A DNA stretch of 64,000 nucleotides from an uncultured Gaiellales bacterium (GCA_964399135.1 CAYNPL010000011.1:28539-92538), one strand, 5' to 3'; shown: positions 2,598 through 58,214, counted from the first letter of the stretch. Translations and numbers: made by a program. Notes: generated from the sequence alone by a model not told the origin.

Positions 2598-2948
2598 GTG
2601 TTCCCCAGCAGCCCGCGTGGGTAGCCATCTATCTGTGGCCGGCCGTTGCCGGACGGCTCTTGCGGCCAACCCGGAGACTCGGGCGAGCAACCCTCGGACG
2701 TCTCCATATTCGGCCTTGCACCGGGTGGGGCTTGCCTGGCCGTCGTGTCACCACGACGCCGGTGCGCTCTTACCGCACCATTTCACCTTCGCAGCCGGCA
2801 GCGCCGGTTCTGCTGTGTCATTTCTGTTGCGCTTTCCCTAGGGTTTCCCCCGCTGGACGTTATCCAGCACCCTGCTCTGCGGTGTCCGGACTTTCCTCGA
2901 AGACCCGCAAGGCGGATCCCCGCGGCTACCCGGGCTGCAGGAGAAGTA
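2598..2948 (-). ncRNA. rnpB: RNase P RNA, bacterial type A
   Basis: Minus-strand read contains GAGGAAAGUCCGGAC (P4), AGGGUGAAAUGGUGCGGUAAGAGCGCACC, ACAGAUAGAUGGCU near the 3' end, and P1 pairing CAGCCCG/CGGGCUG; no credible protein ORF; ends approximate +/-10 nt. Confidence 0.8.
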
Positions 2949-10808: not shown

Positions 10809-11593
10809 TATGATCTGCGAAAACCGGCGACGCGGGCGAAAGAATCGATCAGCAGACTGGCCCCGCCCACCAAAGCCCCGTCGATGTCGGGCTGGGCCAT
10901 CAGCTCGTCGATGTTGTCCGGCCGCACGCTGCCCCCGTAGAGGATGCGCACCGCCTGGGCGGCCTCCGCCCCCAGGTCCTCCGCCACCAGACGGCGGATG
11001 AAGGCCATGGCCGACTCGGCTATCTCGGGGGTGGCGGTCTTGCCGGTGCCGATGGCCCACACCGGCTCATAGGCGATGGCCACGCGAACCACCTCCTCCG
11101 GCCGCACCTGGGCCAGGCCGGCATCGACCTGCGCCTCGAGCACCTCTTCGGTCATGCCGCCTTCGCGCACCGGGCCGGTCTCCCCCACGCACATGATGGG
11201 CATGAGCCCGGCGTCGAGAACGGCCCGCACCTTCTTCTGCACCCCGCCGTCGGTCTCACCGAAGTACTGCCGGCGTTCGGAATGTCCGACGATGACGGCC
11301 CTCACCCCCAGGTCGGCCAGCATGGGGGCGGAAACCTCCCCCGTATAGGCTCCTTCCGCTTCCCAGAAGACATCTTGTGCGGCCACTCCGATCCCAGTAC
11401 CCCGAGCCGACTCCACCGCCCGGGCCAATCCGGTGAAGGATGGTGCCACCAGCACTTCCCGGTCCCGCTGTTCACCCAGAGCGGCGGCCAGTCCGCGCAC
11501 GAAGGCAGCGCCTTCCTCGGCCTTCTTGTGCATCTTCCAGTTGCCGGCGATGAGAGGCACGCGGCCGGCGGTCAAGCCGCTTCCGCCGGTCAC
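10808..11593 (-). CDS. tpiA: triosephosphate isomerase
   Basis: 261 aa; PLIAGNWKMHKK..., GHSERR, AYEPVWAIGTGKTAT. Confidence 0.92.
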   Translation of the reverse strand: MTGGSGLTAGRVPLIAGNWKMHKKAEEGAAFVRGLAAALGEQRDREVLVAPSFTGLARAVESARGTGIGVAAQDVFWEAEGAYTGEVSAPMLADLGVRAVIVGHSERRQYFGETDGGVQKKVRAVLDAGLMPIMCVGETGPVREGGMTEEVLEAQVDAGLAQVRPEEVVRVAIAYEPVWAIGTGKTATPEIAESAMAFIRRLVAEDLGAEAAQAVRILYGGSVRPDNIDELMAQPDIDGALVGGASLLIDSFARVAGFRRS

Positions 11594-12777
11594 GCGCTCT
11601 CCTTCTCGGCCAGGACGGCGATGCCGGGCAGCTGCGCCCCCTCGATGAACTCGAGTGACGCGCCGCCCCCCATGGACACGTGGTCCATGCGGTCGGCCAC
11701 CCCGAACTTGTTGACCGCGGCCACCGAGTCGCCCCCGCCCACCACGGTCAGGCCGGGGCAGCCCGCCATCGCCTCAGCAACAGCCCGGGTGCCCGCGGCG
11801 AACGGCTCCATCTCGAACACCCCCAGGGGACCGTTCCAGAAGACCTCGCCGGCACCGGCGATGGCAGCGGAGTAGGCCGCGGCCGTCTCCGGCCCGATAT
11901 CCAGTCCCATCCATCCCACCGGCACCGCTCCCGCCGGCACCGTCCGCGTCGTCGCCTCGGCGGAGAAGGCGTCGGCGACCACCAGGTCGACCGGCAGCAC
12001 CAGCCGGCACCGGCCGCCGCGGGCCTTGGTGAGCGCCTCCACGGCCGCCGGGATCCCCTCCTCCTCCACCTTGCTGGCGCCCACTTCCAGGCCTTGCGCC
12101 TTCAGGAACGTGAGGCCCATCGCCCCCCCGACAAGGAGGGTGTCGGCCAGATCGAGGAAGCGGTCGATGACCTTGATCTTGTCGGTCACCTTCGCGCCGC
12201 CCAGCACGACCACGAAGGGCCGGCGCGGCTCGGCCAGCAGCGTCTGCAGGGCCGAGATCTCCTTCTCCATCTGAAACCCGGCCACTGCGGGCAGCGCCAC
12301 CGCAAGCCCGGCGGTGGTGACATGCGCCCGGTGTGCCGCGCTGAAGGCATCGTTCACGAAGACGTCCCCCATCCTGGCCAGCTCCTCGACGAGGGTGGGA
12401 TCGTTCTTCTTCTCGCGAGGATCGAAGCGGGAGTTCTCCAGCAACAGGACGTCGCCCGGCCTCATCGCCGCCACGGCCGCCTCCACACCCGGCCCCGACA
12501 ACTCGTCCACCTTCCGCACCGGCGTCCCCAGCAGCCGGGCGAGATGTAGGGCGACCGGGTCGAGCCTCAAGGCCGGGTCGGGCGCGTCTTTGGGACGTCC
12601 CAGGTGGGACATGAGGATGACGCGGGCTCCTCGGTCGCGCAGATAGTCGATGGTCGGGAGCGCGGCACGGATCCTGCTGTCATCGGCGACTCTGCCGTCC
12701 TTCAAGGGCACGTTGAAGTCGACCCGCACGAGTACGCGCCTGCCGGCCACCTCGATGTCCCTGACGGTCTTCTTCAC
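11590..12777 (-). CDS. pgk: phosphoglycerate kinase
   Basis: 395 aa; RVDFNVP, ILMSHLGRP, GGGASLE motifs; 4-nt overlap with tpiA. Confidence 0.93.
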   Translation of the reverse strand: MKKTVRDIEVAGRRVLVRVDFNVPLKDGRVADDSRIRAALPTIDYLRDRGARVILMSHLGRPKDAPDPALRLDPVALHLARLLGTPVRKVDELSGPGVEAAVAAMRPGDVLLLENSRFDPREKKNDPTLVEELARMGDVFVNDAFSAAHRAHVTTAGLAVALPAVAGFQMEKEISALQTLLAEPRRPFVVVLGGAKVTDKIKVIDRFLDLADTLLVGGAMGLTFLKAQGLEVGASKVEEEGIPAAVEALTKARGGRCRLVLPVDLVVADAFSAEATTRTVPAGAVPVGWMGLDIGPETAAAYSAAIAGAGEVFWNGPLGVFEMEPFAAGTRAVAEAMAGCPGLTVVGGGDSVAAVNKFGVADRMDHVSMGGGASLEFIEGAQLPGIAVLAEKESA

Positions 12778-12804
12778 GGTTCACTTCCCTCCGAAGTCGG
12801 TTCC

Positions 12805-13815
<1,011 letters not shown>

Positions 13816-13846
13816 CTACCATGCGCGCCGGCCATGCCACTGCCGG

Positions 13847-14833
13847 CTATCGTCGACCTCGGTTGTCACTAGAATAGCCCTTTCCGCCACCGGCACCCTC
13901 AGCCGTCTCCACCAACCGCCGCAAACGGTGGTTGACGGCCGACCGGGTGAGTCCCTCGCCCCCGGCCTCGGCCAGCTCCCCCAGGTTGAGGTAGGGGAAC
14001 CGCAGCCGCAGAGCCGCCATCTCCCGCAGCGCCGGGGGCAGCCCCGCCAAACGCCCCGTTCTTTCGAGCCGGGCAATGGCCTCCAGTTGGCGGGCGGCCG
14101 CCTCGCCGGTCCGCCGCAGATTGGCCGAGTCGCAGTTGGCCAGCCGGTTGGCCCGGGAACGGACCTCTTTGACCACCGCATGCTCTTGCACCTGGAGGGC
14201 GGCGTCACTGGCGCCGGCGGCCGCCAACAGACCGGCCACTTCGTCTCGGCCCTTCAGGTACACCACGTAGCCGCTCCTGCGGGTACGCATGCCCGGGTGG
14301 AAGTCCATGTCTTTGAGCAGGCGCACCAGGTCGGCGGCGAAGGCCTGATGCTGCGTGGTGACCTCCAGGTGAGCCTCGCGCTGGGGTGCGTTGGCCGAAC
14401 CCGCGCCGATGAGGCACCCCCGCAGGAAGGCGCTGCGGCAGCAGCCTTTCTTCACCAGGCGTTTGACGATGCCGGGCCGGAGTTCGAAGTTGTCGCCCAG
14501 AACCCCCATCTCGTTGAGGGCCTGCAGCGCCGCCGGCGCTCCCTTCAGATGGACCTCATACACGAGACGGTGCTGGAAACGCGGCTCCCGGCGCGTCAGC
14601 AACTCCCCTTCCGCTCCATAGGCCTTGAAGATGGAATAGACCAGCTTGGCCCCGGCCTGCACCGTGGTGGCCAGCCGGATCTCGTACCGCTCGCTCTCCT
14701 CGGCCCCACCGCGGATCAGGAAGGTCCCGGCCGTGTGCACGAGGCCGGCCGCCGCCGCCAGCCGGCAACAACCGTTCTTATCCTCCACCCTGGCCAACTC
14801 CTCCCGGAACGCCCGGGTGAATCCGGAAGCCAC
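13847..14833 (-). CDS. whiA: DNA-binding sporulation/cell-division regulator WhiA
   Basis: 328 aa; WhiA N-terminal domain, LAGLIDADG-like middle domain (LRGCLIGAGSAN), C-terminal HTH; rapZ-whiA-gap synteny. Confidence 0.85.
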   Translation of the reverse strand: MASGFTRAFREELARVEDKNGCCRLAAAAGLVHTAGTFLIRGGAEESERYEIRLATTVQAGAKLVYSIFKAYGAEGELLTRREPRFQHRLVYEVHLKGAPAALQALNEMGVLGDNFELRPGIVKRLVKKGCCRSAFLRGCLIGAGSANAPQREAHLEVTTQHQAFAADLVRLLKDMDFHPGMRTRRSGYVVYLKGRDEVAGLLAAAGASDAALQVQEHAVVKEVRSRANRLANCDSANLRRTGEAAARQLEAIARLERTGRLAGLPPALREMAALRLRFPYLNLGELAEAGGEGLTRSAVNHRLRRLVETAEGAGGGKGYSSDNRGRR

Positions 14834-14834
14834 C

Positions 14835-15734
14835 TCATCCCTCCCGCGAGATATCCCTGTGGGAGATGCTGATCACAAGGCCCTTGTCTTTGCGCAACCG
14901 GCGGGCGAGATCCTCCACCAAGGCCACCGAGCGGTGCCTTCCCCCCGTGCACCCCACGGCCACAACCAGGCGCCGCTTCTGTTCCGACACGAACCCGGGC
15001 GCCAGCGAACGGACGAGCACCGCCACCTTGCGCAGGAAGGCCGCTGCCTCTTTGCGCCCCAGCACATAGTCCTTCACGGCTGCATCCAGACCGCTCTGCG
15101 GTCGCAGGTCCGGGATCCAGAAGGGATTGGGGAGGAACCTGGCATCGAGCACCATGTCGGCGTCATCGGGGAGACCATACTTGTATCCGAAGGATTTCAG
15201 GCTCACGAACAGCTGGTCGTTGAGCTGGTCGGCCAGAAGCGTCTCCTCCAGCCGCCGGCGCAACTCCCTGGGTGCCATCCCGGTGGTGTCGATGACCACG
15301 TCGGCCTGAGAACGCAGGGGGGAAAGCAGGCGTCGCTCCCGTTCGATGGCTTCGGGAAGACTCGGTCCGGATAGCGGGTGAGGGCGGCGCGACGTCTGGT
15401 AGCGCGCGACCAGGGCCTCGTCGGAGGCCTCCAGATAGAGAAGGCGGAAGGGAACGCCCGCCCGCCGCAGGTGGTCGAGCGCTTCGCCCACTTGCTCGAA
15501 GTAGGAGCCGCCCCGCACGTCGAACACCAGGGCCACCCGGTCCACCCGGCTGCCTTCCAAGGCGAACAGCTCGACGACCCGCGAGAGCATCTGCGGGGGC
15601 AGGTTGTCGATGCAGAAGTACCCCATGTCCTCGAAGGTGGCGACCGCCTCCGACTTGCCCGCGCCGGAGAGGCCGGTGATGACGGTGAGATGCAGCTGGG
15701 GGACCCGATCCCGAAGAAGGCGGTCGTCATCCAT
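14835..15734 (-). CDS. rapZ: RNase adapter protein RapZ (YvcJ family P-loop protein)
   Basis: 299 aa; LTVITGLSGAGKSEA Walker A, C-terminal CTGGRHRSVA motif. Confidence 0.88.
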   Translation of the reverse strand: MDDDRLLRDRVPQLHLTVITGLSGAGKSEAVATFEDMGYFCIDNLPPQMLSRVVELFALEGSRVDRVALVFDVRGGSYFEQVGEALDHLRRAGVPFRLLYLEASDEALVARYQTSRRPHPLSGPSLPEAIERERRLLSPLRSQADVVIDTTGMAPRELRRRLEETLLADQLNDQLFVSLKSFGYKYGLPDDADMVLDARFLPNPFWIPDLRPQSGLDAAVKDYVLGRKEAAAFLRKVAVLVRSLAPGFVSEQKRRLVVAVGCTGGRHRSVALVEDLARRLRKDKGLVISISHRDISREG

Positions 15735-16302
15735 CGCTTGGCTCCTTCCTCGTCCCGCTCCCGACCGCGTCCGCCGGAGCCACCGTCACATACGTACGCT
15801 CATGCTCCAGGAGCCTGGCCTTCCAAGCCGGGTCGTCCCCGTAGCGGCCGAGGCTGCCGTCGGCCCGGATCACCCGGTGGCAGGGGATGACGACCGGCAC
15901 CGGGTTGGCGGCCATAGCGTTGCCCACCGCGCGCGCAGCCCGGGGATAGCCGGCCATCTGGGCCAGTCCCCCGTAGCTGATGGTCTGCCCGGGGGGGATG
16001 CTCAGAAGGGCCAGGTAGACCGCCCGCTCGAACTCCCCATCGGCCAGGTTGTCCACCGCTATCTCCTCCGCCGTCCAGGCCAGACGCTCCCCACTGAAGT
16101 AGGCCTCAAGAGCAGCCGCCCAGGCTGCCAGAGCCGCCTCGTCGGTGTCCCCGGCCGCCTCCGGGCCGGCCACGTCCGGGCAAGCCGGAGGCAGGTCCAC
16201 GCCGACGAGCCGTCCGCCCGCCACGAAGACGCGACCTTCGCCCCAGGCGGTGGAGAACGGCGCGCTGACCACGGTCTCAACCCGTCTTGTGGACGTATGC
16301 AT
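15727..16302 (-). CDS. ogt: methylated-DNA--protein-cysteine methyltransferase (O6-alkylguanine-DNA alkyltransferase)
   Basis: 191 aa; GQTISYGGLA...NPVPVVIPCHRVIRADGSLG (PCHRV active site); N-terminal start uncertain. Confidence 0.8.
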   Translation of the reverse strand: MHTSTRRVETVVSAPFSTAWGEGRVFVAGGRLVGVDLPPACPDVAGPEAAGDTDEAALAAWAAALEAYFSGERLAWTAEEIAVDNLADGEFERAVYLALLSIPPGQTISYGGLAQMAGYPRAARAVGNAMAANPVPVVIPCHRVIRADGSLGRYGDDPAWKARLLEHERTYVTVAPADAVGSGTRKEPSDG

Positions 16303-18163
16303 ATATCCCCCTTGCCACCTTGCCCGGCAGACCGGGCACGGCCTCCAATTCCTCTCTTGTGGCCTGCAGGAACCTCTCGGGAGAACCGAAATGCCTGACT
16401 ATGGCCTGCTTCCGCTTCTCCCCGATGCCCGGCAGCTGGTCGAGCAGGGACGCGGTGGTCTCCGCAGCCCGCTTGCTCCGATGGTACCCGAGAGCGAACC
16501 GGTGCGCTTCGTCCCTCACCTGTTGCAGCAGCCCCAGTCCGGGGTCGTCGCGCGCCAGTCCCAACGCATGCGCCGACCAGGGGACGAAGACCTCCTCCTC
16601 CCTCTTGGCCAGCGATATCACCGTCACCGCTCCCTCCAGTCCGGCCCGCTCGAGCGCGTCCAGCGCCGCTCCCAGCTGGCCCTTGCCGCCGTCCACCAGC
16701 ACCAGGTCTGGTACCGCCTCGAACGAAGGGTCGTGCGTCCTGGCGGCAGGAGTGCCGCCCCCACCTCCCGCGACCTCACGGGTGAAGCGGCGGAAGAGGG
16801 CTTCTCTCAGCGCGCCGAAATCATCCTGTCCCGCGGTGGTGCGGATCGAGAACTTGCGGTAGTCGCTCTTCTTGGGGACCCCGCCCTCGAAGACCACCAT
16901 CGACGCCACGATATTCTCTCCGCCCAGGTTGGAGACGTCGTATCCTTCGATGCGCATGGGCGGCCCCTCCAAGCCCAGCGCCGCCTCCAGCGAGGCCAAA
17001 GCCATGATCCGCTTCTCCCGGGTCTTCTGGTCGCGCAGCCTCTCGTGGGCGAGGGCCAGGGCGGCGTTGCGGTCGGCCAGCTGCTGCAGGCGGCGTTTGT
17101 CACCACGCCCGGCCGACCGCACCTCGACCCGCGCCCCCCGCAGTCCTGCGAGGAACGAGGCAAGGGCGGTCCGCTCCCGTATGCGGGCCGGCACGATCAA
17201 CTCCGCGGGGACCGTGGGCGACGAGGAGTAGTACTCGGCCACGAAACGTTCGAACACCTCTTGTTCCTGTGCTCCCTCCACGTTGATGAGGGTGAGACTG
17301 CGGCGGTCGGCCAGGCGGCCGTCCCGGGTGACGAAGACCTGCACGTTTGCCCCCCAGTCGTCCACGGCCATCCCGGTGATGTCGGCCGAGGCCAGAGCAC
17401 CCGATTCCACCTGCTGCCGTTCGAGCACGTGCAGCAGGGCATCCAGGCGGTCGCGGTAAGCGGCCGCGGCCTCGAAATCCTGCTTGGCGGCCGCCTCCGC
17501 CATGGCCGAGCGCAGCCCGGCCACCACCTTGGTCTCGCGCCCGCTGAGGAAATCGACCACCTGGTTCACGACAGCGCGATAGGCGGCCGGGTCCACCGTC
17601 CCCAGACAGGGCGCCGGACAGCGGTCGATGTGGAACTGCAGACAGGGCGAGCCCGAGCTCCTGCCCGGGATCCGGCCCCTGCAGGCCCGCACCGGGAATA
17701 CCCGGCCCAGCACGTCCAGGGTCTCCCGGACCTTGGCGGCGCTGGCGAAGGGTCCGAAGTAGAGGTTGCCCTTCCGGTGCGGCTGCCGGGTGAACATCAC
17801 CCGGGGGAACTCGTCTTCCATGGTGACCATGATGTACGGGTAGGACTTGTCGTCACGCAGCCGGATGTTGAAGGGCGGCCGGTGCTGCTTGATCAGGTTG
17901 TGCTCGAGTAGGAGGGCCTCCACCTCGTTGGTGGTGACTATCCACTCCAAAGAGGCCGCCTTCCCCACCATATCCCGCACCTTGAGGGGGAGCCTGCCTC
18001 CCTCGGCGCCGCCTAAGGCAGAAAGGTAGCTGGCCAGACGGCGGCGCAGCGAGAGAGCCTTGCCGGCGTAGAGGACCGACCCGCCGGCGTCTTTGAAGAG
18101 GTAGACCCCGGGCAGGTCCGGAGCCTGCGTCATCTGGTGTCTGAGTTCGTCGGCCGCGCTCAT
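16277..18163 (-). CDS. uvrC: excinuclease ABC subunit C
   Basis: Probable start MSAADELRHQMTQAPDLPGVYLF at 18163 (track ORF over-extended to 18304); GIY-YIG, UvrBC-interaction, RNaseH-like and HhH domains. Confidence 0.9.
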   Translation of the reverse strand: MSAADELRHQMTQAPDLPGVYLFKDAGGSVLYAGKALSLRRRLASYLSALGGAEGGRLPLKVRDMVGKAASLEWIVTTNEVEALLLEHNLIKQHRPPFNIRLRDDKSYPYIMVTMEDEFPRVMFTRQPHRKGNLYFGPFASAAKVRETLDVLGRVFPVRACRGRIPGRSSGSPCLQFHIDRCPAPCLGTVDPAAYRAVVNQVVDFLSGRETKVVAGLRSAMAEAAAKQDFEAAAAYRDRLDALLHVLERQQVESGALASADITGMAVDDWGANVQVFVTRDGRLADRRSLTLINVEGAQEQEVFERFVAEYYSSSPTVPAELIVPARIRERTALASFLAGLRGARVEVRSAGRGDKRRLQQLADRNAALALAHERLRDQKTREKRIMALASLEAALGLEGPPMRIEGYDVSNLGGENIVASMVVFEGGVPKKSDYRKFSIRTTAGQDDFGALREALFRRFTREVAGGGGGTPAARTHDPSFEAVPDLVLVDGGKGQLGAALDALERAGLEGAVTVISLAKREEEVFVPWSAHALGLARDDPGLGLLQQVRDEAHRFALGYHRSKRAAETTASLLDQLPGIGEKRKQAIVRHFGSPERFLQATREELEAVPGLPGKVARGIYAYVHKTG

Positions 18164-18422
18164 CTTCGCTCCAAAGAGAACCGCCCGCCTGGCTGCAGGT
18201 GGTGCTTGGGCTGTCACCGCAAAGTGTACCTCAGCCCCCTCTCCCGTCCCGCCCGGGAGGGCCCCGCGATTCCGCCCCGGCAGCCGGGGGCAACCCGCGG
18301 ACACCCAACCCGGTCGCCCGGGCGGCTCTGTTCACCATGCTATACTTTCGCGCCTCCGGGACCGCGCTGCGGGCATTACCGGGCACGCCGATCAACGCCC
18401 TCCGGGGCCTCAAACTACGCCG

Positions 18423-27224: not shown

Positions 27225-27255
27225 GCCGGCGTGCCCCGGTCGCCGTGAGCTGAGG

Positions 27256-27328
27256 TGGAGGTAAGGGGACTCGAACCCCTGGCCTCAACGCTGCCAGCGT
27301 CGCGCTCTCCCAGCTGAGCTATACCCCC
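27256..27328 (-). tRNA. tRNA-Ala (anticodon GGC)
   Basis: Minus-strand read GGGGGUAUAGCUCAGCUGGGAGAGCGCGACGCUGGCAGCGUUGAGGCCAGGGGUUCGAGUCCCCUUACCUCCA; G3:U70 Ala identity pair; anticodon loop CUGGCAG; CCA not encoded. Confidence 0.9.
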
Positions 27329-50436: not shown

Positions 50437-51732
50437 CTAGCGGGAGTTCTTTCGCATCTGATCGAGGAACTCCGCGTTCGACTTGGTCTCTTTGAGCTTC
50501 TGGATGAGCAGCTCGATGGCGGCGTTGGGGTCGAGAGCGTGAAGGACCGACCGAAGCTTCCACACCATCTTCGCTTCCACCGGGTCCATGAGGAGTTCTT
50601 CTTTCCGGGTGCCCGAGTTCTCGATGTCGATGGCGGGGAAGACCCTCTTGTTGGCCAACTGCCGGGTGAGCCGCACCTCCCAGTTGCCCGTTCCCTTGAA
50701 CTCCTCGAAGATGACCTCGTCCATGCGCGAGCCGGTCTCCACCAGAGCGGTGGCCAGGATGGTGAGAGAGCCTCCCTCCTCGATGTTGCGCGCCGCCCCG
50801 AAGAACTTCTTGGGCGGATAGAGAGCGGTGGAGTCGACGCCGCCCGAGAGGATGCGGCCGCTGGCGGGGGCCTGCAGGTTGTAGGCGCGGGCCATGCGCG
50901 TGATGGAATCCAGCAGTACCACCACGTCCTTGCCCACCTCCACCAGGCGCTTGACCCGTTCCAACACCAACTCGGTCACCTGCACGTGGTTCTCACCCGG
51001 TTGGTCGAAGGTGGAGCTGACCACTTCTCCGGCCACCGTGCGCTCCATGTCGGTGACCTCCTCCGGGCGCTCGTCCACCAGCAACACCATCAGGTGCACC
51101 TCGGGGTTGTTCGCCGCGATGGCATGGGCGATGTCCTTGAGGATGGTGGTCTTGCCTGCTTTGGGGGGCGACACGATGAGCCCCCGCTGACCCTTACCCA
51201 GGGGACTTATGATATCCATCACCCGGGCGGAGATGCGATCGGGTGTGGTCTCCAGCCGCAGTCTCTCCTCAGGGAAGAGCGGGGTGAGCGACTCGAAGTT
51301 GGGCCGGTGCCGCGCCTGTTCAGGATCCATCCCGTTGACCGTCTGGATCTTGAGCAGCGCGTGGTACTTCTCGTTGTCGCGGGGCGTACGCACCTGGCCG
51401 GTGATCTCGTCTCCCCGGCGCAGCTTGAACCGCCTGATCTGCGACAGCGACACGTAGATGTCGGAATCCGACTGGGTGTAGCCCTGGGTTCGCAGGAAAC
51501 CGTAGCCGTCGGGCAGGATGTCGAGCAGGCCGGTGCGAAAATGCAGGCCCCTCTCCTGCGACTGTTCGTTCAGGATCTTCATGATGAGATCCTGCTTCGA
51601 GTACTTACGGAAGTTCTTGATGCCGAGCTCGCCGGCGACCATGTGCAGGTCGGACAGCAGCTTGGGCTCTATCTCCGTCGCCACAGCGGTCTTCGCCGAG
51701 GGCGCTTGCTGTTGTTCGTCGTGGTCGTTCAC
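50437..51732 (-). CDS. rho: transcription termination factor Rho
   Basis: 431 aa; OB-fold N-domain (GYGFLR), Walker A GLIVSPPKAGKT, Q and R loops; no long N-terminal insertion. Confidence 0.95.
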   Translation of the reverse strand: MNDHDEQQQAPSAKTAVATEIEPKLLSDLHMVAGELGIKNFRKYSKQDLIMKILNEQSQERGLHFRTGLLDILPDGYGFLRTQGYTQSDSDIYVSLSQIRRFKLRRGDEITGQVRTPRDNEKYHALLKIQTVNGMDPEQARHRPNFESLTPLFPEERLRLETTPDRISARVMDIISPLGKGQRGLIVSPPKAGKTTILKDIAHAIAANNPEVHLMVLLVDERPEEVTDMERTVAGEVVSSTFDQPGENHVQVTELVLERVKRLVEVGKDVVVLLDSITRMARAYNLQAPASGRILSGGVDSTALYPPKKFFGAARNIEEGGSLTILATALVETGSRMDEVIFEEFKGTGNWEVRLTRQLANKRVFPAIDIENSGTRKEELLMDPVEAKMVWKLRSVLHALDPNAAIELLIQKLKETKSNAEFLDQMRKNSR

Positions 51733-51774: not shown

Positions 51775-52761
51775 TTACCTGATACTGAGCGTCACCCGGT
51801 GGCCGGCGCTCTCCGCCCGATGCAGCGCGTTGATGGTGCGGATGGCGTGGCATCGTGAGCACATCACCATTGTCTCCGTGCGCACGCCGTCGTCGCGCAC
51901 TTCCACCCCCCGCAAGAACCTGCCGCGCGTGACGGCGGTAGCCACGAAGACCACGCCTTCGCCTGCCAGATCGGCGGCGGAGAGCTTGGCCTCTATGTCG
52001 TCGATCCCGGCGGCCCTCACCTGTTCCACCTGGTGACGCGACACCGGCCAGAACCGGGCTTGGAGCTCACCACCCAGGCAGCGCAGGGCCGCCGCCACGA
52101 TCACAGCCTCGATCGAACCGCCGATGCCGATGCACACGTCCGCGCCGGCATCACGTGAAGCCGCCGCGATCCCTGCCGAGATGTCCCCGTCGGGGATGAG
52201 CCGGAGGCGGGCCCCACACTGCTTGATCTGAGCCACCAGGTCCTCGTGCCGGGGCCGGTCCAGCACCACTGCGATAAGCTCCTCCACTGTGCGCCCCAAA
52301 GCCGCCGCGATGCCTTTGAGATTGGCCGCCACCGGAGCGTCCAGGTCTACCGCCGAAGCCGCCTTCCCCGCCACCATGATCTTCTGCATGTACATCTCCG
52401 GGACCGGCATGAGGCTGCCTGGCGGACCGGCTGCGAGCATGGATAGGGCGCCGTCGATACCCCGAGCCAGGGGCGCCATGCCCTCCAGCGGCAGGGGCAC
52501 GAGGTCCCAGACCTCCTGCGACTCAGGGTCTTCGCCGCCGAACTCCATGCCCGTCTGCAGAGGCCCGGCCTGCGCCCCTCCCTTGCAGGCCACAACACGA
52601 AGCCTCACCGGCATCTCCGCCAGAGCGCCGACCATGGCCGCGCGGGCGGCCGCTTCCCCGGCCGCGCCGTCTCCGCGCCCCATCCAGTCGGCCGCAGCGA
52701 GCGCCGCCGCGTCGGTGATATGCCCAAAGCGCCCACAGGTGCAGCGGCCCTCAGACGACAC
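51775..52761 (-). CDS. glpX: class II fructose-1,6-bisphosphatase
   Basis: 328 aa; GlpX N-terminus ITDAAALAAADWMGRGD, FIG-superfamily motifs. Confidence 0.85.
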   Translation of the reverse strand: MSSEGRCTCGRFGHITDAAALAAADWMGRGDGAAGEAAARAAMVGALAEMPVRLRVVACKGGAQAGPLQTGMEFGGEDPESQEVWDLVPLPLEGMAPLARGIDGALSMLAAGPPGSLMPVPEMYMQKIMVAGKAASAVDLDAPVAANLKGIAAALGRTVEELIAVVLDRPRHEDLVAQIKQCGARLRLIPDGDISAGIAAASRDAGADVCIGIGGSIEAVIVAAALRCLGGELQARFWPVSRHQVEQVRAAGIDDIEAKLSAADLAGEGVVFVATAVTRGRFLRGVEVRDDGVRTETMVMCSRCHAIRTINALHRAESAGHRVTLSIR

Positions 52762-53668
52762 GTTCCGCCTCCATTTCCTCTATGACCCCATACACGGCGT
52801 CCACTACCAGCCCCACTGTGTCATCGATGCTCACGTTGTCCACCACCAGGGTCCCTTCCTGCTCCGCCTGCTCCAAGATGAACTCCTGGATGCGCCGGAT
52901 CTCTGAGAACCCCCGTAGATAACGGGCCAGTACCCGTTTGCCCGCGGTCTCCTGCTCGCGCACCAGGAAGTGGCCGCGGTGCAGTTCTTCGTCCCGCACC
53001 GACACAACCAGAGACAGCAGCAGCACGTCGGGGTTGCGCTGCTTGGTCACCACCGAGGCCAACATGCCCGGCACCATGTGCACACCCTCCACCACCAGGC
53101 TGGTGTGCTCTTGGATGGCCCTGTCGATGATGGCCAGCACGCCCACGTTCACCATCTCCGCCTGCTCCATGAAGCCCAATATGTGCCGGTCGAGACTGGA
53201 GCCCACCGGGATGCGCACCGCTTGGTCCGCCTCATAGGAGGAGAAGTGGATGGACGGCATCAGACGCTTTGAGAAGAAGGCGCGCATCGCCTCCCTGATG
53301 GAGTCGGTGGAGATGATACGGACGATGCCGAACCGGTCGGCCACCCTGGCGGCGATGGTGCTCTTGCCCACCCCGGTGGCGCCGCCGATGAGGATGACCA
53401 CAGGCTTGTCCTCAGCCGCCAGCCGGTTCCACATCCGGTACCGCTGCAGGTACCGCTGTTCCTCCCTCTCGGCCAGGACAATCTCAACCATGGCCCGCAG
53501 GTGGTCCACGCCGATCTCGGCCTGACCGCCCTGCAGCAGCCGGTCCTCCACCTCTCTGGCCACTTCGTAGGATCGCTGCGGAACCAGGCCGGTGGAGGTC
53601 AGAGCCGTCGCCAGCAACCCCTTGGAAAAGGGGATCCTGTGTCCCTCGCTGACCAGTTGGATGATCAT
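52751..53668 (-). CDS. 2-phosphoglycerate kinase (ATP-cone + P-loop kinase)
   Basis: Probable start MIIQLVSEGHRIPFSKGLL (ATP-cone) at 53668; P-loop ILIGGATGVGKSTIA then ISTDSIREAMR; archaeal 2PGK-like. Confidence 0.65.
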   Translation of the reverse strand: MIIQLVSEGHRIPFSKGLLATALTSTGLVPQRSYEVAREVEDRLLQGGQAEIGVDHLRAMVEIVLAEREEQRYLQRYRMWNRLAAEDKPVVILIGGATGVGKSTIAARVADRFGIVRIISTDSIREAMRAFFSKRLMPSIHFSSYEADQAVRIPVGSSLDRHILGFMEQAEMVNVGVLAIIDRAIQEHTSLVVEGVHMVPGMLASVVTKQRNPDVLLLSLVVSVRDEELHRGHFLVREQETAGKRVLARYLRGFSEIRRIQEFILEQAEQEGTLVVDNVSIDDTVGLVVDAVYGVIEEMEAERVV

Positions 53669-53672
53669 GCCT

Positions 53673-55073
53673 TCATCGCCCGCGTCCGAACCTGTCTTTC
53701 GCCATGGCCGCCACCTGCTCCACGAGCTCCCGCAGCTCGCCTGCGTGCCCTGGAGCCGCCTCGACCGGCACATTGTCCACGAACACCACCGGCAACCCCC
53801 GCTTGACGGCTTCTTCCGCCACCAGGTCGATGGAGGCGGCCTTGATCTCGGTGAGCACTACTTCCACCCTTTCCATGGCTGGGTCGCCCAGGGCCCTCCT
53901 CAGAGCCACCCGGTCGGCAAGCTCAGTCGAGACCAGCTCCACCCGACACCCCCACCGCTCCTCCAGATGACCGGCCAGCGCGGGTCCTTGCCCCGCCGGG
54001 GCGGTCGAAAAGAAGGCCACCCGCCGGCCGCACACATCTTCCGCCGGCTCCGGCCTGAACACCACCGGCACCACCGGCAGTCCCGGCCTCACTTGCCGCA
54101 CCGCTTCCACGATGGCCCTCACCTTGCCCTGAGAAGCGAGCGGCTCCTCTGCCATCGTCAACACCATCGCGTCGCTCAGCAGCAGCCGGTATGTCCCCAG
54201 ACAACCGGCAATGTGGCCCACCGGCTGATGCGCCCCCGCCACCAGCAGCCTGGCGTCGGGCCGTACCGGAGGCTGGGCCGCACCGCTGCCTTCCAGGATG
54301 ATCAGGCCCGGTCTCAGCGCGTTCGCCAGCGACACCCCCGCGGCCACGTTCGACGAGAAGGGGACCCCGGCCATCCCCCCGCCGCAGCGCCTGCACCCCA
54401 CCGTGACCACCCGGCTGAGGACCGCGTCTTCGAAGTGGTCCGACGCGGCGTGCCGGCCTCGCCGGCTGAACTCCAGCAGGTCCTTGACCTGCAGCCGCGC
54501 CGTCGCGCCGTCGACGATCTCGGGCTCCGCTGGTCCGCCGCGCCCCATCGCTACCACGACGACGGCGGGGACACCCACCCCCGGACCTTCCCTTTGGCCC
54601 GCTGCCGCCTGCAGAGTCCGCGCTGCATAGCCGCTAACCGCCGTCTTGCCCACCCGCTTGCCGGTGCCTATCACGGCAAGTGAAGGACTGGTGCAGAGAC
54701 GGCTGAGATTCGCGGGGCTGAAGTGGAAATCGGGACCTACGTAGCCGACGTCGTGCGCCAGACTTTCACTGATGAGGCGGAAACGCTCCTCGTATCCTAG
54801 CACCGGTTCGTCGCTCAGGTCAACGACCACCTCCGGTTCAAACCGCTCGATGGCGGCCGCGAGTCCCCGCGCCCAATCCTTGTCGAACACCACCGGCAGG
54901 CCGTAGAGCTCCTCCGCGGCCGCTTCCAGCTCGGCGGCCTGGACCTTCTCGGTGCCGCCCAGGAACAAGGCCGCCCGGAATTCGAACCTGTCGGCGGCCT
55001 GCCGCAGCGCCTCCACGACCACGGGCGGGTAGTGCTCGCCGTCGATCAGAGCTACGGCGGAGGGTTTCATCAC
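53673..55073 (-). CDS. cyclic 2,3-diphosphoglycerate synthetase-like P-loop protein
   Basis: 466 aa; N-terminal LIDGEHYPPV block, IGTGKRVGKT P-loop; 4-nt gaps/overlaps with flanking genes; family call from memory. Confidence 0.5.
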   Translation of the reverse strand: MMKPSAVALIDGEHYPPVVVEALRQAADRFEFRAALFLGGTEKVQAAELEAAAEELYGLPVVFDKDWARGLAAAIERFEPEVVVDLSDEPVLGYEERFRLISESLAHDVGYVGPDFHFSPANLSRLCTSPSLAVIGTGKRVGKTAVSGYAARTLQAAAGQREGPGVGVPAVVVVAMGRGGPAEPEIVDGATARLQVKDLLEFSRRGRHAASDHFEDAVLSRVVTVGCRRCGGGMAGVPFSSNVAAGVSLANALRPGLIILEGSGAAQPPVRPDARLLVAGAHQPVGHIAGCLGTYRLLLSDAMVLTMAEEPLASQGKVRAIVEAVRQVRPGLPVVPVVFRPEPAEDVCGRRVAFFSTAPAGQGPALAGHLEERWGCRVELVSTELADRVALRRALGDPAMERVEVVLTEIKAASIDLVAEEAVKRGLPVVFVDNVPVEAAPGHAGELRELVEQVAAMAKDRFGRGR

Positions 55074-55825
55074 CCGGACGAGCGCTCGAACTCCACGATC
55101 GTCTCGCCCCCGTGGAACGGATACCGGCGAGAGACAGTGACGTGGCAGTCCCTGATCTCGACCACGTTGTAGCAGGGCTTGGTGTCTCCGCGTAGACGCA
55201 GGGTAGCCACCGTCCCCGCGTTCACCACATGCATGTTCTCCAGCCGCCAGGCGTACGGCACGTGCTTATGGCCCGACAGCACCAGTTCCACCCCGCATTC
55301 CAGCAGCACCTCCAGTACGTCACCGGCGTCGTTGACGATGTTCCGTTCGCGCCCGGTGCCGGGGATGGGCAGCAGGTGGTGGTGCAGAACGAAGACCTTG
55401 AAGTCGTCCGGCCCCTCCATGAAAGCCTCACGGATCCAGGGATAGCGATGACGGCCGATGCGACCGTAGTCCAAGTCGGGCTCGGTGGAGTCGACCCCGA
55501 CGATGGTGACCCCGTTCTTGCGGATGACCGTCTCGCGGGTGGCGAACAGCCGCTCGAAGTGGGCGTATCCCACGTTCCTGCTGTCATGATTGCCCGGCAC
55601 CACCAGCACGTCGGGGCAGTGGAGCCTGTCCAGATACTCCCGGGCCTCACGGAACTCTTGCCGGTAGCCCATGCTGGTGAGGTCCCCGGTGACCACCACC
55701 ACGTCCGGGGCCAGGTCGTTCACTTCCACCAGAGCCCGGTCCAACAGGTTGGAGACGAAGTACTGCGACCCTGTGTGAAGGTCGGACAGATGTGCGATCA
55801 CGCACGTGCAGGTTTGGTCTGGCAT
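55070..55825 (-). CDS. metallophosphoesterase (calcineurin-like)
   Basis: 251 aa; DxH (LSDLHTG), GDxxD (TGDLT), GNHD, HHH..GH motifs; 4-nt overlap with downstream gene. Confidence 0.8.
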   Translation of the reverse strand: MPDQTCTCVIAHLSDLHTGSQYFVSNLLDRALVEVNDLAPDVVVVTGDLTSMGYRQEFREAREYLDRLHCPDVLVVPGNHDSRNVGYAHFERLFATRETVIRKNGVTIVGVDSTEPDLDYGRIGRHRYPWIREAFMEGPDDFKVFVLHHHLLPIPGTGRERNIVNDAGDVLEVLLECGVELVLSGHKHVPYAWRLENMHVVNAGTVATLRLRGDTKPCYNVVEIRDCHVTVSRRYPFHGGETIVEFERSSG

Positions 55826-55829
55826 CGGG

Positions 55830-56936
55830 CTACTCCGCCGTCGCTATGATCTCCTCGACCGCGGCCAGGTCGGCCGGACAGTGGATGATAGGACGGGACT
55901 GGTCGATCGCAGTCTGGGGGTCCTTGAGGCCGTGTCCGGTGAGCACACATACCACAGTATCGCCCTTCGGCAGTCCGGAACCGCCGTACTTGAGCAGACC
56001 GGCCACGCTGGCGGCGGAAGCCGGTTCGCAGAACACCCCCTCTTTTTGGGCCAGAAGCCGCTGGGCGGCCAGGATCTCGGAGTCGGTGACGTCCCGGATG
56101 GCACCGCCAGACTCGCAGGCGGCAGCCAGAGCCTCCTCGCCTCGAGCCGGGTTGCCGATGCGGATTGCGGTGGCCACCGTCTCCGGCTGCTCTACCACGC
56201 AGCCCCGCACCAGGGGATTCGCGCCTTCGGCCTGGAACCCCCAGACCACCGGTGATCGCCCGGCCAATCCCCGCTCTTGGTACTCCCGGAAGCCCTTCCA
56301 ATAGGAGGTGATGTTGCCGGCATTGCCGACCGGGATGGACAGCAGGGCCGGAGCATCTCCCAGGGTGTCCACGATCTCGAAAGCGGCCGTCTTCTGGCCC
56401 TCGATACGGTACGGGTTGAGGGAGTTCACCAGGGTGATGGGCTGTCTCTGCGAGATCTCCCTGACGTACTCGAGAGCCAAGTCAAAGTTGCCCTCGACGG
56501 CTATGGCCACGGCTCCGTGCATGAGGGCCTGGGACAGCTTGCCCATGGCGATCTTGCCCTCAGGGATGAGGACCACGCAGCGCATGCCGGCCCGGGCCGC
56601 GTAGGCGGCAGCCGAAGCCGACGTGTTCCCGGTGGAAGCACAGATGACGGCCGTCGCCCCCTCCTCCAATGCCCGGGTGATGGCCACCGTCATACCCCGG
56701 TCTTTGAACGAGCCCGTGGGATTGGCCGCTTCGTATTTGAGGAAGACCCGGCAGCCCAACTCCCGGCTGAGCCAAAGCGCGGGCACCAAGGGCGTGCTGC
56801 CCTCGCCCAGAGTGGCAGGGGCGGTCTCCGGCTTGATGGGCAGGAACGCCCGGTACCTTTCGATGACGCCGAAGGGAAGCGCAGCCGCCCCGCCCCCCGA
56901 GCCGCCTTCACGACCGCGTGCCGATGCCGCCGCCAT
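55830..56936 (-). CDS. thrC: threonine synthase
   Basis: 368 aa; PLP lysine motif TGSFKDRG. Confidence 0.92.
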
Positions 56937-58214
56937 CTAGAGGACCCGCAGCGTCATGGGCCGGCTCTTGCAGCATGCGAGCGCCTCGGCCCGCTCGATG
57001 GCGGCGAAGAAGCCCTTCTCCTTAGTGGGATGGGTGATGATGACCAACTCCGCCTCCGCTCCCCTGCCCTTCTGTAGCATGCTGGCGATGGACACCGCAT
57101 GATCGCCGAAGACAGAGGCGATCTGAGCCAGGACCCCCGCCCGGTCTTCCACGTTCACCTTGACGAAGAAGGCCGACTCCACCTGCTCCGCAGGGTAGAA
57201 ACCTAGTTTGCGGTAGCAAGAGCAGCTCTGGAGGAAGCCCACATCCTTGGTGTTGGCGATGGACACGATGTCGCTCACCACTGCGGTCGCCGTCGGTCGG
57301 CCGCCCGCGCCCGGGCCCATGAGCATGATCTCGCCGATCTCGTCGCCCTGCAGGAAGACGGCGTTGTTCGACCCGCTGATAGAGGCCAACGGGTGCTCCT
57401 TCGGCACCAGAGCCGGGAAGACCCGCACGCTCACTCTGCCCTCGATGAGCCGGGCCGCGCCCACCAGCTTCACCACGAACCCCAGGTCCTTGGCGTAACG
57501 GACGTCGTCGAGGGTGATGTTCTGGATCCCCTCGTAAGCGACGTCGGCGAGAGTGACCCGGGAATGGAAGGCGATAGAGCCCAGGATGGCCATCTTGGCG
57601 GCGGGATCGGCCCCGCCTACATCCGCGGTGGGGTCGGCTTCGGCATAGCCCAGCTCCTGGGCCTTAGCCAGGATCTCGGCGTAGTCGCCCTCTTCTTCGT
57701 ACATGCGGGTGAGAATGTAGTTGGTGGTGCCGTTGACGATCCCATAGACGGTCTTGAGCCCGGCGGCGATCATGCTTTCCCGCATCACCTTGATGATGGG
57801 CACGGCCCCGGCCACCGAGGCCTCGAAGCGCAGGTGACGCCCTTCATCCCGGGCCAGAGTGAACAGCGCCTCCCCTCGAGCGGCCAGGAGCTGCTTGTTG
57901 GCGGTGACCACGTTCTTGCCCCTGCGCATGGCGGCATCCAAGAAGTCGAACGCCGCTCCCGTGCCGCCGATGACCTCCACCACGATATCGATGGAGGGAT
58001 CGTCGAGGATGTCGGTGAACTCGGTGGTGAACAGCCCGCCGGGGGCCTCCGCCGGGACCTTAGCGGGGTCGATCTCCAGGATCTTCGCCACCTGGAGGTC
58101 CACCCCGGTGCCCTCCAAGATCTGGTCGTGCTCCCCCTGGATGAGGCGATAGACGCTCGAACCGATGGTGCCGAACCCCAACAGTGCGAGCCGCACGACC
58201 CTTTCCCGGTTCAT
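56937..58214 (-). CDS. hom: homoserine dehydrogenase
   Basis: 425 aa; NAD-binding GFGTIG, catalytic domain, C-terminal ACT domain. Confidence 0.92.
   Translation of the reverse strand: MNRERVVRLALLGFGTIGSSVYRLIQGEHDQILEGTGVDLQVAKILEIDPAKVPAEAPGGLFTTEFTDILDDPSIDIVVEVIGGTGAAFDFLDAAMRRGKNVVTANKQLLAARGEALFTLARDEGRHLRFEASVAGAVPIIKVMRESMIAAGLKTVYGIVNGTTNYILTRMYEEEGDYAEILAKAQELGYAEADPTADVGGADPAAKMAILGSIAFHSRVTLADVAYEGIQNITLDDVRYAKDLGFVVKLVGAARLIEGRVSVRVFPALVPKEHPLASISGSNNAVFLQGDEIGEIMLMGPGAGGRPTATAVVSDIVSIANTKDVGFLQSCSCYRKLGFYPAEQVESAFFVKVNVEDRAGVLAQIASVFGDHAVSIASMLQKGRGAEAELVIITHPTKEKGFFAAIERAEALACCKSRPMTLRVL

Follow-up and report, generated by a model that had tools for sequence, protein, structure and literature searches.

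The DNA analyzed here (the window) is a 64,000-nucleotide stretch from an uncultured Gaiellales bacterium (GCA_964399135.1 CAYNPL010000011.1:28539-92538). Between positions 51,775 and 55,825 it carries four minus-strand genes that encode, in order of transcription, a metallophosphoesterase (MPE), homologs of the synthetase for cyclic 2,3-diphosphoglycerate (cDPGS) and of 2-phosphoglycerate kinase (2PGK), and a class II fructose-1,6-bisphosphatase (GlpX) (Table 1). A sequence-only reading of the window had proposed that the four genes form a bacterial pathway for cyclic 2,3-diphosphoglycerate (cDPG). Our results point instead to a probable functional unit of the first three, conserved among Actinomycetota, with GlpX as a variable neighbor.

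The open reading frames (ORFs) and their junctions were exactly as that reading gave them, and both motifs that it quoted (LIDGEHYPPV and ILIGGATGVGKSTIA...ISTDSIRE) were found in the translations. The TGA of the MPE gene overlaps the start of cpgS within GTGATGA (by 4 nt or 1 nt, depending on the start used), the cpgS stop is separated from the ATG of pgk2 by 4 nt (AGGC), and pgk2 overlaps the GTG of glpX, which is preceded by GGAGG, by 11 nt. The longest ORF at pgk2 extends to 53773; the start giving 305 aa is probably the correct one, with support from the profile alignment and from an independent gene call by JGI. The same four genes were called independently on an identical JGI metagenome contig, and E values ranging from 4e-18 to 4e-107 against Pfam, NCBIfam, and PDB indicate that the ORFs are real genes rather than chance ones. 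The packing is equally tight farther upstream (a gap of 4 nt between thrC and the MPE gene, none between hom and thrC, and a 4-nt overlap of lysA and hom). The overlaps and short gaps that had been taken as the sign of an operon were thus borne out, but they do not delimit a four-gene unit. Scans for promoters and terminators inside the array gave no signal above background, and an Rfam scan of the region gave no match in the array. Because the packing continues upstream without such internal signals, the transcription unit is likely to be lysA-hom-thrC-MPE-cpgS-pgk2-glpX, perhaps including rho, which lies 42 nt beyond glpX.

Table 1. Genes of the array and other features of the window
Feature	Position	Strand	Description
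lysA	58211-59644	-	Upstream, codirectional; JGI call shorter (455 aa)
hom	56937-58214	-	Upstream, codirectional; ORF and Pfam families on identical contig
thrC	55830-56936	-	Upstream, codirectional; ORF and Pfam families on identical contig
MPE gene	55070-55825	-	251 aa; class-III-phosphodiesterase-like; PF00149
cpgS (cDPGS homolog)	53673-55073	-	466 aa with the GTG start at 55073; 465 aa with the ATG start at 55070
pgk2 (2PGK homolog)	52751-53668	-	305 aa from ATG; ATP-cone and P-loop kinase
glpX (class II fructose-1,6-bisphosphatase)	51775-52761	-	328 aa; PF03320
rho (transcription termination factor)	50437-51732	-	Downstream; Rho_N, Rho_RNA_bind, ATP-synt_ab
uvrC-rapZ-(yvcK)-whiA-gap-pgk block	11590-18304	-	Assigned by N-terminal sequence resemblance only
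RNase P RNA, class A	2601-2941	-	243 bits
tRNA-Ala(GGC)	27254-27328	-	RNA scan
tRNA-Gly(CCC)	61868-61942	-	RNA scan

Membership of the 466-aa protein in the cDPGS family is well supported by sequence comparison, as the sequence-only reading had supposed. Residues 6 to 464 aligned with residues 7 to 458 of the Methanothermus fervidus enzyme (PDB 8ORK/8ORU) at 42% identity (phmmer E value, 4.2e-107; 362 bits), and a second deposited cDPGS, PDB 9SXB, was matched at an E value of 3e-93 (317 bits). The latter, deposited as cDPG synthetase, is 436 aa long and rich in Lys, Ile, and Glu. No match was found in the Pfam and NCBIfam profile sets searched, and the missing Pfam match is explained by the newer PF27272 model not being part of that set; precomputed PF27272 (CpgS_N) hits exist for the identical gene on the JGI contig (L081) and for all of the best 120 homologs listed. 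The M. fervidus residues that contact 2,3-diphosphoglycerate (2,3-DPG), Mg2+, and ADP are E45 and K46, which the partner subunit contributes, and K145, R146, K149, T150, D208, E305, T353, E404, and K406 (PMC10690619); they correspond, in that order, to E42, K43, K139, R140, K143, T144, D212, E309, T357, E409, and K411 of the window protein. All of these contacts, the Walker A motif GxxGxGK[T/S], and the long blocks MGRGGP, HAASDH.EDA, GCRRCGGG, and EGSGA were invariant in an alignment of 11 sequences (the window protein, the M. fervidus enzyme, and nine bacterial homologs).

The 305-aa product of pgk2 has the predicted 2PGK architecture, with an ATP-cone (PF03477) over residues 8 to 82 (E value, 7e-8) and matches to P-loop kinase families from residue 85 onward. 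Its best NCBIfam match was NF003259 (2-phosphoglycerate kinase), at 290.2 bits and nearly full length (profile positions 9 to 298 of 306). Sister subfamilies scored far lower (136 bits for PRK12338 and 79 bits for mevalonate-3-phosphate 5-kinase), and its grouping with 2PGK rather than with other subfamilies is therefore well supported at the level of sequence. The proposed family assignment stood to this extent, by a wide margin and over the full length, but the score fell below the equivalog cutoff of 343 bits; a second model, NF008994, gave 278 bits against a cutoff of 603. The protein is accordingly described here as a member of the COG2074 family and a putative 2PGK equivalog. At this locus, thrB is missing from the order lysA-hom-thrC-thrB-rho that is canonical for actinobacteria; in related lineages, thrB is retained upstream of the module. 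No GHMP-type homoserine kinase was detectable in the whole 64-kb window. The kinase was considered as a stand-in for the missing thrB and rejected, since other lineages carry thrB and the kinase together.

The 251-aa MPE matched PF00149 (E value, 3.6e-18) and has the superfamily motifs DxH, GD, GNH[DE], H, and GHxH along with the alpha/beta sandwich fold. An AlphaFold 2 model (mean predicted local distance difference test score, 84.5) was closest to Rv0805 and GpdQ (Foldseek E values, 5e-14 to 5e-13; template modeling score, ~0.7), at only 18 to 24% sequence identity. The metal ligands D15, H17, D48, N79, H80, H148-150, H186, and H188 were invariant in 31 sequences and align with those of GpdQ. 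Six further arginines (R83, R125, R159, R161, R210, and R212) are invariant and specific to the family, and the motifs GNHDxRNVG, DSTxPDLDxGR, PxPGTGRERN, and RLRGxTKP are likewise family specific; GpdQ has neither these arginines nor these motifs. The invariant arginines, situated to either side of the metal motifs in the sequence, suggest a small polyanionic substrate. Against the CpdA equivalog model NF008359, the protein scored 45.5 bits (cutoff, 225 bits); what it has in common with CpdA is limited to the fold and the ligands that are generic to metallophosphoesterases. No transmembrane or hydrophobic segment was predicted in the MPE, which is presumably soluble.

Homologs of the window cDPGS are widespread. 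A search returned at least ~8,000 matches at E values of ≤1e-10, and relatives were present in at least 533 species genomes when one genome per GTDB species was scanned. Each of the best 120 matches had at least 63% identity with the window protein, and the few organism labels among them were Thermoleophilia or Actinobacteria metagenome-assembled genomes (MAGs). Synteny was analyzed in the 80 loci with the greatest similarity to the query. They belonged to Actinomycetota (Thermoleophilia, Gaiellales, Rubrobacteraceae, MAGs labeled 'Coriobacteriia', and "Candidatus Aquicultor"), to a few Bacillota, and to many Methanobacteriales, among them Methanobrevibacter and Methanosphaera of the gut and rumen. 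In a neighbor-joining tree, which is rough and drawn from this biased sample, the Methanobacteriales formed one clade beside the Bacillota, nested in deeper actinobacterial diversity; this placement argues against recent transfer from methanogens. Sample names of the relatives (palsa, peat, fen, soil, groundwater, rumen, and gut) imply that many hosts are not thermophiles. An estimate of growth temperature from the IVYWREL fraction (~53 to 63°C) was discarded as unreliable, given the few proteins and the 67% GC content of the genome.

The synteny counts (tblastn of the window proteins against the best 80 loci) revealed a conserved core in the Actinomycetota. The MPE gene lay directly upstream of cpgS in 36 of 38 non-Rubrobacter loci and in all 12 Rubrobacteraceae-like loci (i.e., 48 of 50 in total), and pgk2 lay directly downstream in 37/37 non-Rubrobacter loci. 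Adjacency of the kinase gene was not seen in Rubrobacteraceae-like (0/13), Methanobacteriales (0/21), or Bacillota (0/3) loci. The 13 Rubrobacteraceae-type loci (L018, L020, L021, L023, L026, L030, L033, L038, L041, L042, L050, L058, and L075) read MPE-cDPGS-(GlpX)-rho, and no 2PGK gene was found within 6 kb in any of them; the retention of the MPE-cDPGS pair where the kinase gene is not adjacent ties the MPE to cDPGS and not to the kinase. Junctions in the actinobacterial modules are mostly 4-nt overlaps or gaps of <30 nt. The upstream neighbor turns over completely, from thrC in the window to argS in Rubrobacteraceae and, in other lineages, a gene for an S49 peptidase or for a GDE/MGH1-like glycosidase, and rho lies downstream in nearly all actinobacterial loci as a conserved anchor. 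Among the three proteins, the MPE is the best conserved (median identity to the window protein, 59%, compared with 50% for cDPGS and 43% for 2PGK).

Some loci differ in their surroundings. A ~740-aa glycosidase of the GDE_N_bis and MGH1-like (mannosylglycerate-hydrolase-like) type is encoded just upstream of the MPE gene in eight actinobacterial loci (at about positions 2 to 5 kb of each locus; L010, L014, L015, L017, L025, L027, L037, and L057) and hints at a neighborhood of glycerate-derived solute metabolism. In the Bacillota MAG loci (L022, L032, and L036), cpgS is flanked by genes for a GntR/UTRA regulator and an ABC transporter with a solute-binding protein.

When 1.84 billion representatives were searched exhaustively, the MPE family proved to be compact, with 226 clusters at E values of ≤1e-30. 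Besides single-domain actinobacterial proteins, it contains archaeal tandem proteins of ~500 aa (31 to 37% identity) from Thermococcus, Pyrococcus, Palaeococcus, Theionarchaea, Methanofastidiosia, Bathyarchaeota, and Thermoplasmatota. Their N-terminal halves carry the arginine-rich motifs GNHDxRNVG, DSxxPDxxxGR, PxPxxGRERN, and RxxRxG and look active; the C-terminal halves lack catalytic residues and are degenerate. A CBS-domain gene of 132 to 136 aa always precedes the tandem gene (including L084/L087 and L086). In Pyrococcus yayanosii (CP002779.1, 1268674-1290185; L084/L087), the tandem gene comes right after a type I cas cluster. That cluster in turn is located shortly downstream of the cDPGS and 2PGK genes (PMC4890121), so that the tandem gene is seemingly one cas cluster away from them. 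As orthologs that might back a hydrolase function, the tandem proteins neither support nor exclude the idea. Four apparent MPE-cDPGS fusions of 450 to 700 aa (P0258, P0287, P0373, and P0378) were rejected as assembly frameshifts, recognizable by out-of-frame stretches rich in Arg, Ala, and Pro; such pseudofusions would mislead automated domain-fusion analyses.

We consider it probable, though well short of certain, that MPE, cDPGS, and 2PGK constitute a conserved functional unit that works as follows. The kinase would phosphorylate 2-phosphoglycerate with ATP to give 2,3-bisphosphoglycerate (2,3-BPG), a step plausibly gated by the adenylate level through the ATP-cone. The synthetase would spend a second ATP in joining the phosphates at positions 2 and 3 to form cDPG, a cyclic pyrophosphate, and would rely for this on the Walker A, Mg2+, and Lys/Arg machinery that it shares with its M. 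fervidus counterpart. The cotranslated MPE, predicted to be a soluble binuclear-metal hydrolase, most likely acts on polyanionic products of the pathway, either opening the anhydride of cDPG to yield 2,3-BPG or dephosphorylating 2,3-BPG. The cyclic compound would serve as a mobilizable reserve of phosphate, energy, and C3 units and as a stress solute, and GlpX (a transaldolase in other lineages) would be coexpressed through its inherited place beside rho rather than as a dedicated step. Such a pairing of synthesis with mobilization is consistent with the findings in Methanothermobacter thermautotrophicus, where cDPG is a store of phosphate, carbon, and energy with a dedicated hydrolase activity (PMC1224877). 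The structure of the genes, their homology and synteny, and the conservation of the active sites are established here, whereas we infer that cDPG is actually made, what the MPE acts on, and which physiological role the compound plays. The sequence-only reading had named the MPE as a candidate for the cDPG hydrolase; the partnership with cDPGS holds in 48/50 actinomycetotal loci, and the MPE is best described as a candidate cDPG- or 2,3-BPG-hydrolyzing partner whose substrate is suggested by genomic association. More tentatively, deep-branching Actinomycetota of soil, peat, and sediment (Thermoleophilia/Gaiellales, Rubrobacteria, and Aquicultor-like and related lineages) might make cDPG, with the MPE gene as the ring-opening gene of an ATP-cone-gated, ppk/ppx-like buffer of phosphate, energy, and C3 units, a possibility that we regard as doubtful.

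Several observations weigh against the proposed unit. Beside cpgS, the MPE gene is missing from two actinobacterial loci (L019 and L054), from all 24 Methanobacteriales loci, and from all 3 Bacillota loci, and no MPE ortholog was seen within 6 kb of cpgS in the archaeal loci. The archaeal tandem MPE genes adjoin the CBS-domain gene, with no cDPGS gene within 10 kb, and the MPE family is therefore not intrinsically cDPG specific. The kinase remains below its equivalog cutoff, in a family (COG2074) that includes kinases acting on other substrates. The MPE is predicted to be soluble, whereas the sole described cDPG hydrolase activity is membrane bound (PMC1224877). The solute lists in surveys of cultured Rubrobacter that are cited in PMC6741124 name mannosylglycerate, trehalose, and di-myo-inositol phosphate and not cDPG, although the surveyed strains need not be carriers of the genes. 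Finally, cDPG is a predicted product in the bacterial members.

An alternative for the MPE, which we judge to be unlikely, is that of a generic cyclic-nucleotide or phosphodiester hydrolase (CpdA/Icc) placed beside cpgS by ancestral gene order and unrelated to cDPG. Public annotation as CpdA/Icc, the nearest folds (Rv0805 and GpdQ), and the occurrence of archaeal relatives without an adjacent cDPGS gene all fit this idea, and the whole region from lysA to rho is syntenic across Actinomycetota, so that order alone can be inherited. The score against the CpdA equivalog, however, is only a fraction of the cutoff. The MPE-cDPGS pairing also outlasts the turnover of upstream neighbors (argS, the S49 peptidase, the GDE-type glycosidase, and thrC) and the changes downstream, where the kinase gene is lost and glpX is swapped for the transaldolase gene. 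The mostly overlapping junctions and a conservation above that of cDPGS itself likewise speak for a functional partnership.

We think it improbable that the kinase and the ligase have diverged to act on another phosphorylated acid, or that the pathway stops at 2,3-BPG (e.g., to supply the cofactor of 2,3-bisphosphoglycerate-dependent phosphoglycerate mutase) and makes no cDPG. Such a divergence would accord with the subthreshold 2PGK score, with the range of COG2074 relatives, which include mevalonate-3-phosphate 5-kinase, plant LPA1, and members from Thermus and Deinococcus (PMC1274311), with the Rubrobacteraceae loci in which no 2PGK gene is adjacent, and with the lack of any report of bacterial cDPG in the literature searched. 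It is countered by the invariance, in the M. fervidus enzyme and ten bacterial sequences alike, of every published cDPGS contact to 2,3-DPG, Mg2+, and ATP, by the wide margin with which 2PGK is the best match of the kinase, and by the adjacency of the two genes in all 37 non-Rubrobacter actinobacterial loci.

The sequence-only reading had also assigned GlpX a dedicated place, in a four-gene operon in which it passes the C3 unit, once released, on to gluconeogenesis, with cDPG acting as a thermoprotective solute. By its profile matches, the 328-aa protein is an ordinary class II fructose-1,6-bisphosphatase: it matched PF03320 over positions 9 to 307 of 307 (305 bits; E value, 6e-91) and Mycobacterium tuberculosis GlpX (6AYY) at an E value of 1.3e-52, with a score of 213 bits against TIGR00330 (cutoff, 259 bits). 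The slot between pgk2 and rho holds a gene for a TAL_FSA transaldolase/fructose-6-phosphate aldolase of ~218 aa in at least 26 loci, glpX in ~7 (L001 to L006, which form the clade of the window, and L062), and no gene in several; in ~10 Rubrobacteraceae loci without adjacent pgk2, glpX directly follows cpgS. GlpX is therefore a variable neighbor and not a fixed member of the module. The glpX and tal genes presumably lie beside rho in Bacillus as well, which would suggest inherited gene order. The 11-nt overlap with its own GGAGG, the recurrence of glpX after the module or after cpgS, and the replacement by another sugar-phosphate enzyme, often just as tightly coupled, favor a four-gene operon, and a link between cDPG and gluconeogenesis has been proposed for methanogens (PMC1224877). 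Yet with so variable a slot, packing that is equally tight through lysA, hom, and thrC, and relatives from palsa, fen, soil, and rumen that make thermoprotection an unlikely role, we give little credence to a dedicated four-gene operon. GlpX and TAL_FSA are both sugar-phosphate enzymes and often tightly coupled, so that some loose connection with gluconeogenesis or with pentose-phosphate metabolism is possible. Elsewhere in the window, the putative block from uvrC to pgk is typically actinobacterial and fits an ordinary chromosomal context.

The existence of these bacterial homologs is not itself a discovery, contrary to what the sequence-only reading implied. The exact window proteins are already named 'cyclic 2,3-diphosphoglycerate synthetase', '2-phosphoglycerate kinase', 'fructose-1,6-bisphosphatase II', and 'CpdA' in JGI/IMG, and many of the best 120 cDPGS matches carry the JGI name cDPG synthetase. 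What is new is that bacteria share a conserved module of three genes, that it is broadly present in mesophilic Actinomycetota, and that it brings a candidate for the degradative enzyme. The literature searched yielded no paper that deals with bacterial cDPG or with bacterial copies of these genes and none assigning a gene to the cDPG-degrading (hydrolase) step; papers from 2023 and 2025 still treat cDPG as exclusive to methanogens (PMC10690619), which agrees with the earlier statement that the pathway is undemonstrated in bacteria. The compound has been presented as an extremolyte of hyperthermophilic methanogens only and is under development as a biotechnological stabilizer. If the three-gene module is active, the taxonomic and ecological range of cDPG would widen greatly, to at least 533 species genomes, many of them from mesophilic habitats, its presumed role would move from thermoprotection to phosphate and energy storage or to protection against desiccation and oxidation, and new, possibly mesophilic enzymes for its production would become available. 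The MPE offers a concrete and cheaply testable candidate for the degradative step.

Among known systems, the M. fervidus pathway (PMC10690619) shares with the window full-length homologs of 2PGK and cDPGS, including the unique N-terminal domain and the layout of ATP-cone and P-loop. It differs in that the window host is a high-GC actinobacterium from a nonthermal metagenome, in which cpgS and pgk2 are adjacent and translationally coupled and are joined by a conserved MPE gene that is absent beside archaeal cDPGS genes; product formation here is predicted from sequence. The cDPGS and 2PGK genes of P. yayanosii (PYCH_14390-14400) are likewise adjacent; they are pressure regulated and have been discussed as an energy-supply or stress system, not as one of purely thermal protection (PMC4890121). 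Unlike the window, that locus is archaeal, its surroundings include CRISPR-cas and an integrated element, and its tandem MPE gene stands outside the operon, probably some kilobases off, beside the CBS-domain gene. The cDPG hydrolase of M. thermautotrophicus would convert cDPG to 2,3-DPG, as is proposed for the MPE, but that activity is membrane associated and inhibited by K+ and Pi (PMC1224877), in contrast to the predicted solubility of the window protein. Rv0805 of M. tuberculosis and GpdQ of Enterobacter aerogenes share the fold and seven or eight metal-ligand positions with the MPE, and they are separated from it by their low sequence identity, by its failure to reach the CpdA equivalog threshold, and by family motifs absent from GpdQ. 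A parallel in logic is the ppk-ppx polyphosphate operon, which encodes both the enzyme that makes a phosphoanhydride store and the hydrolase that acts on it. The analogy depends on the substrate proposed for the MPE; the proteins themselves are unrelated, and the store handled by ppk-ppx is polymeric, whereas cDPG is a cyclic monomer.

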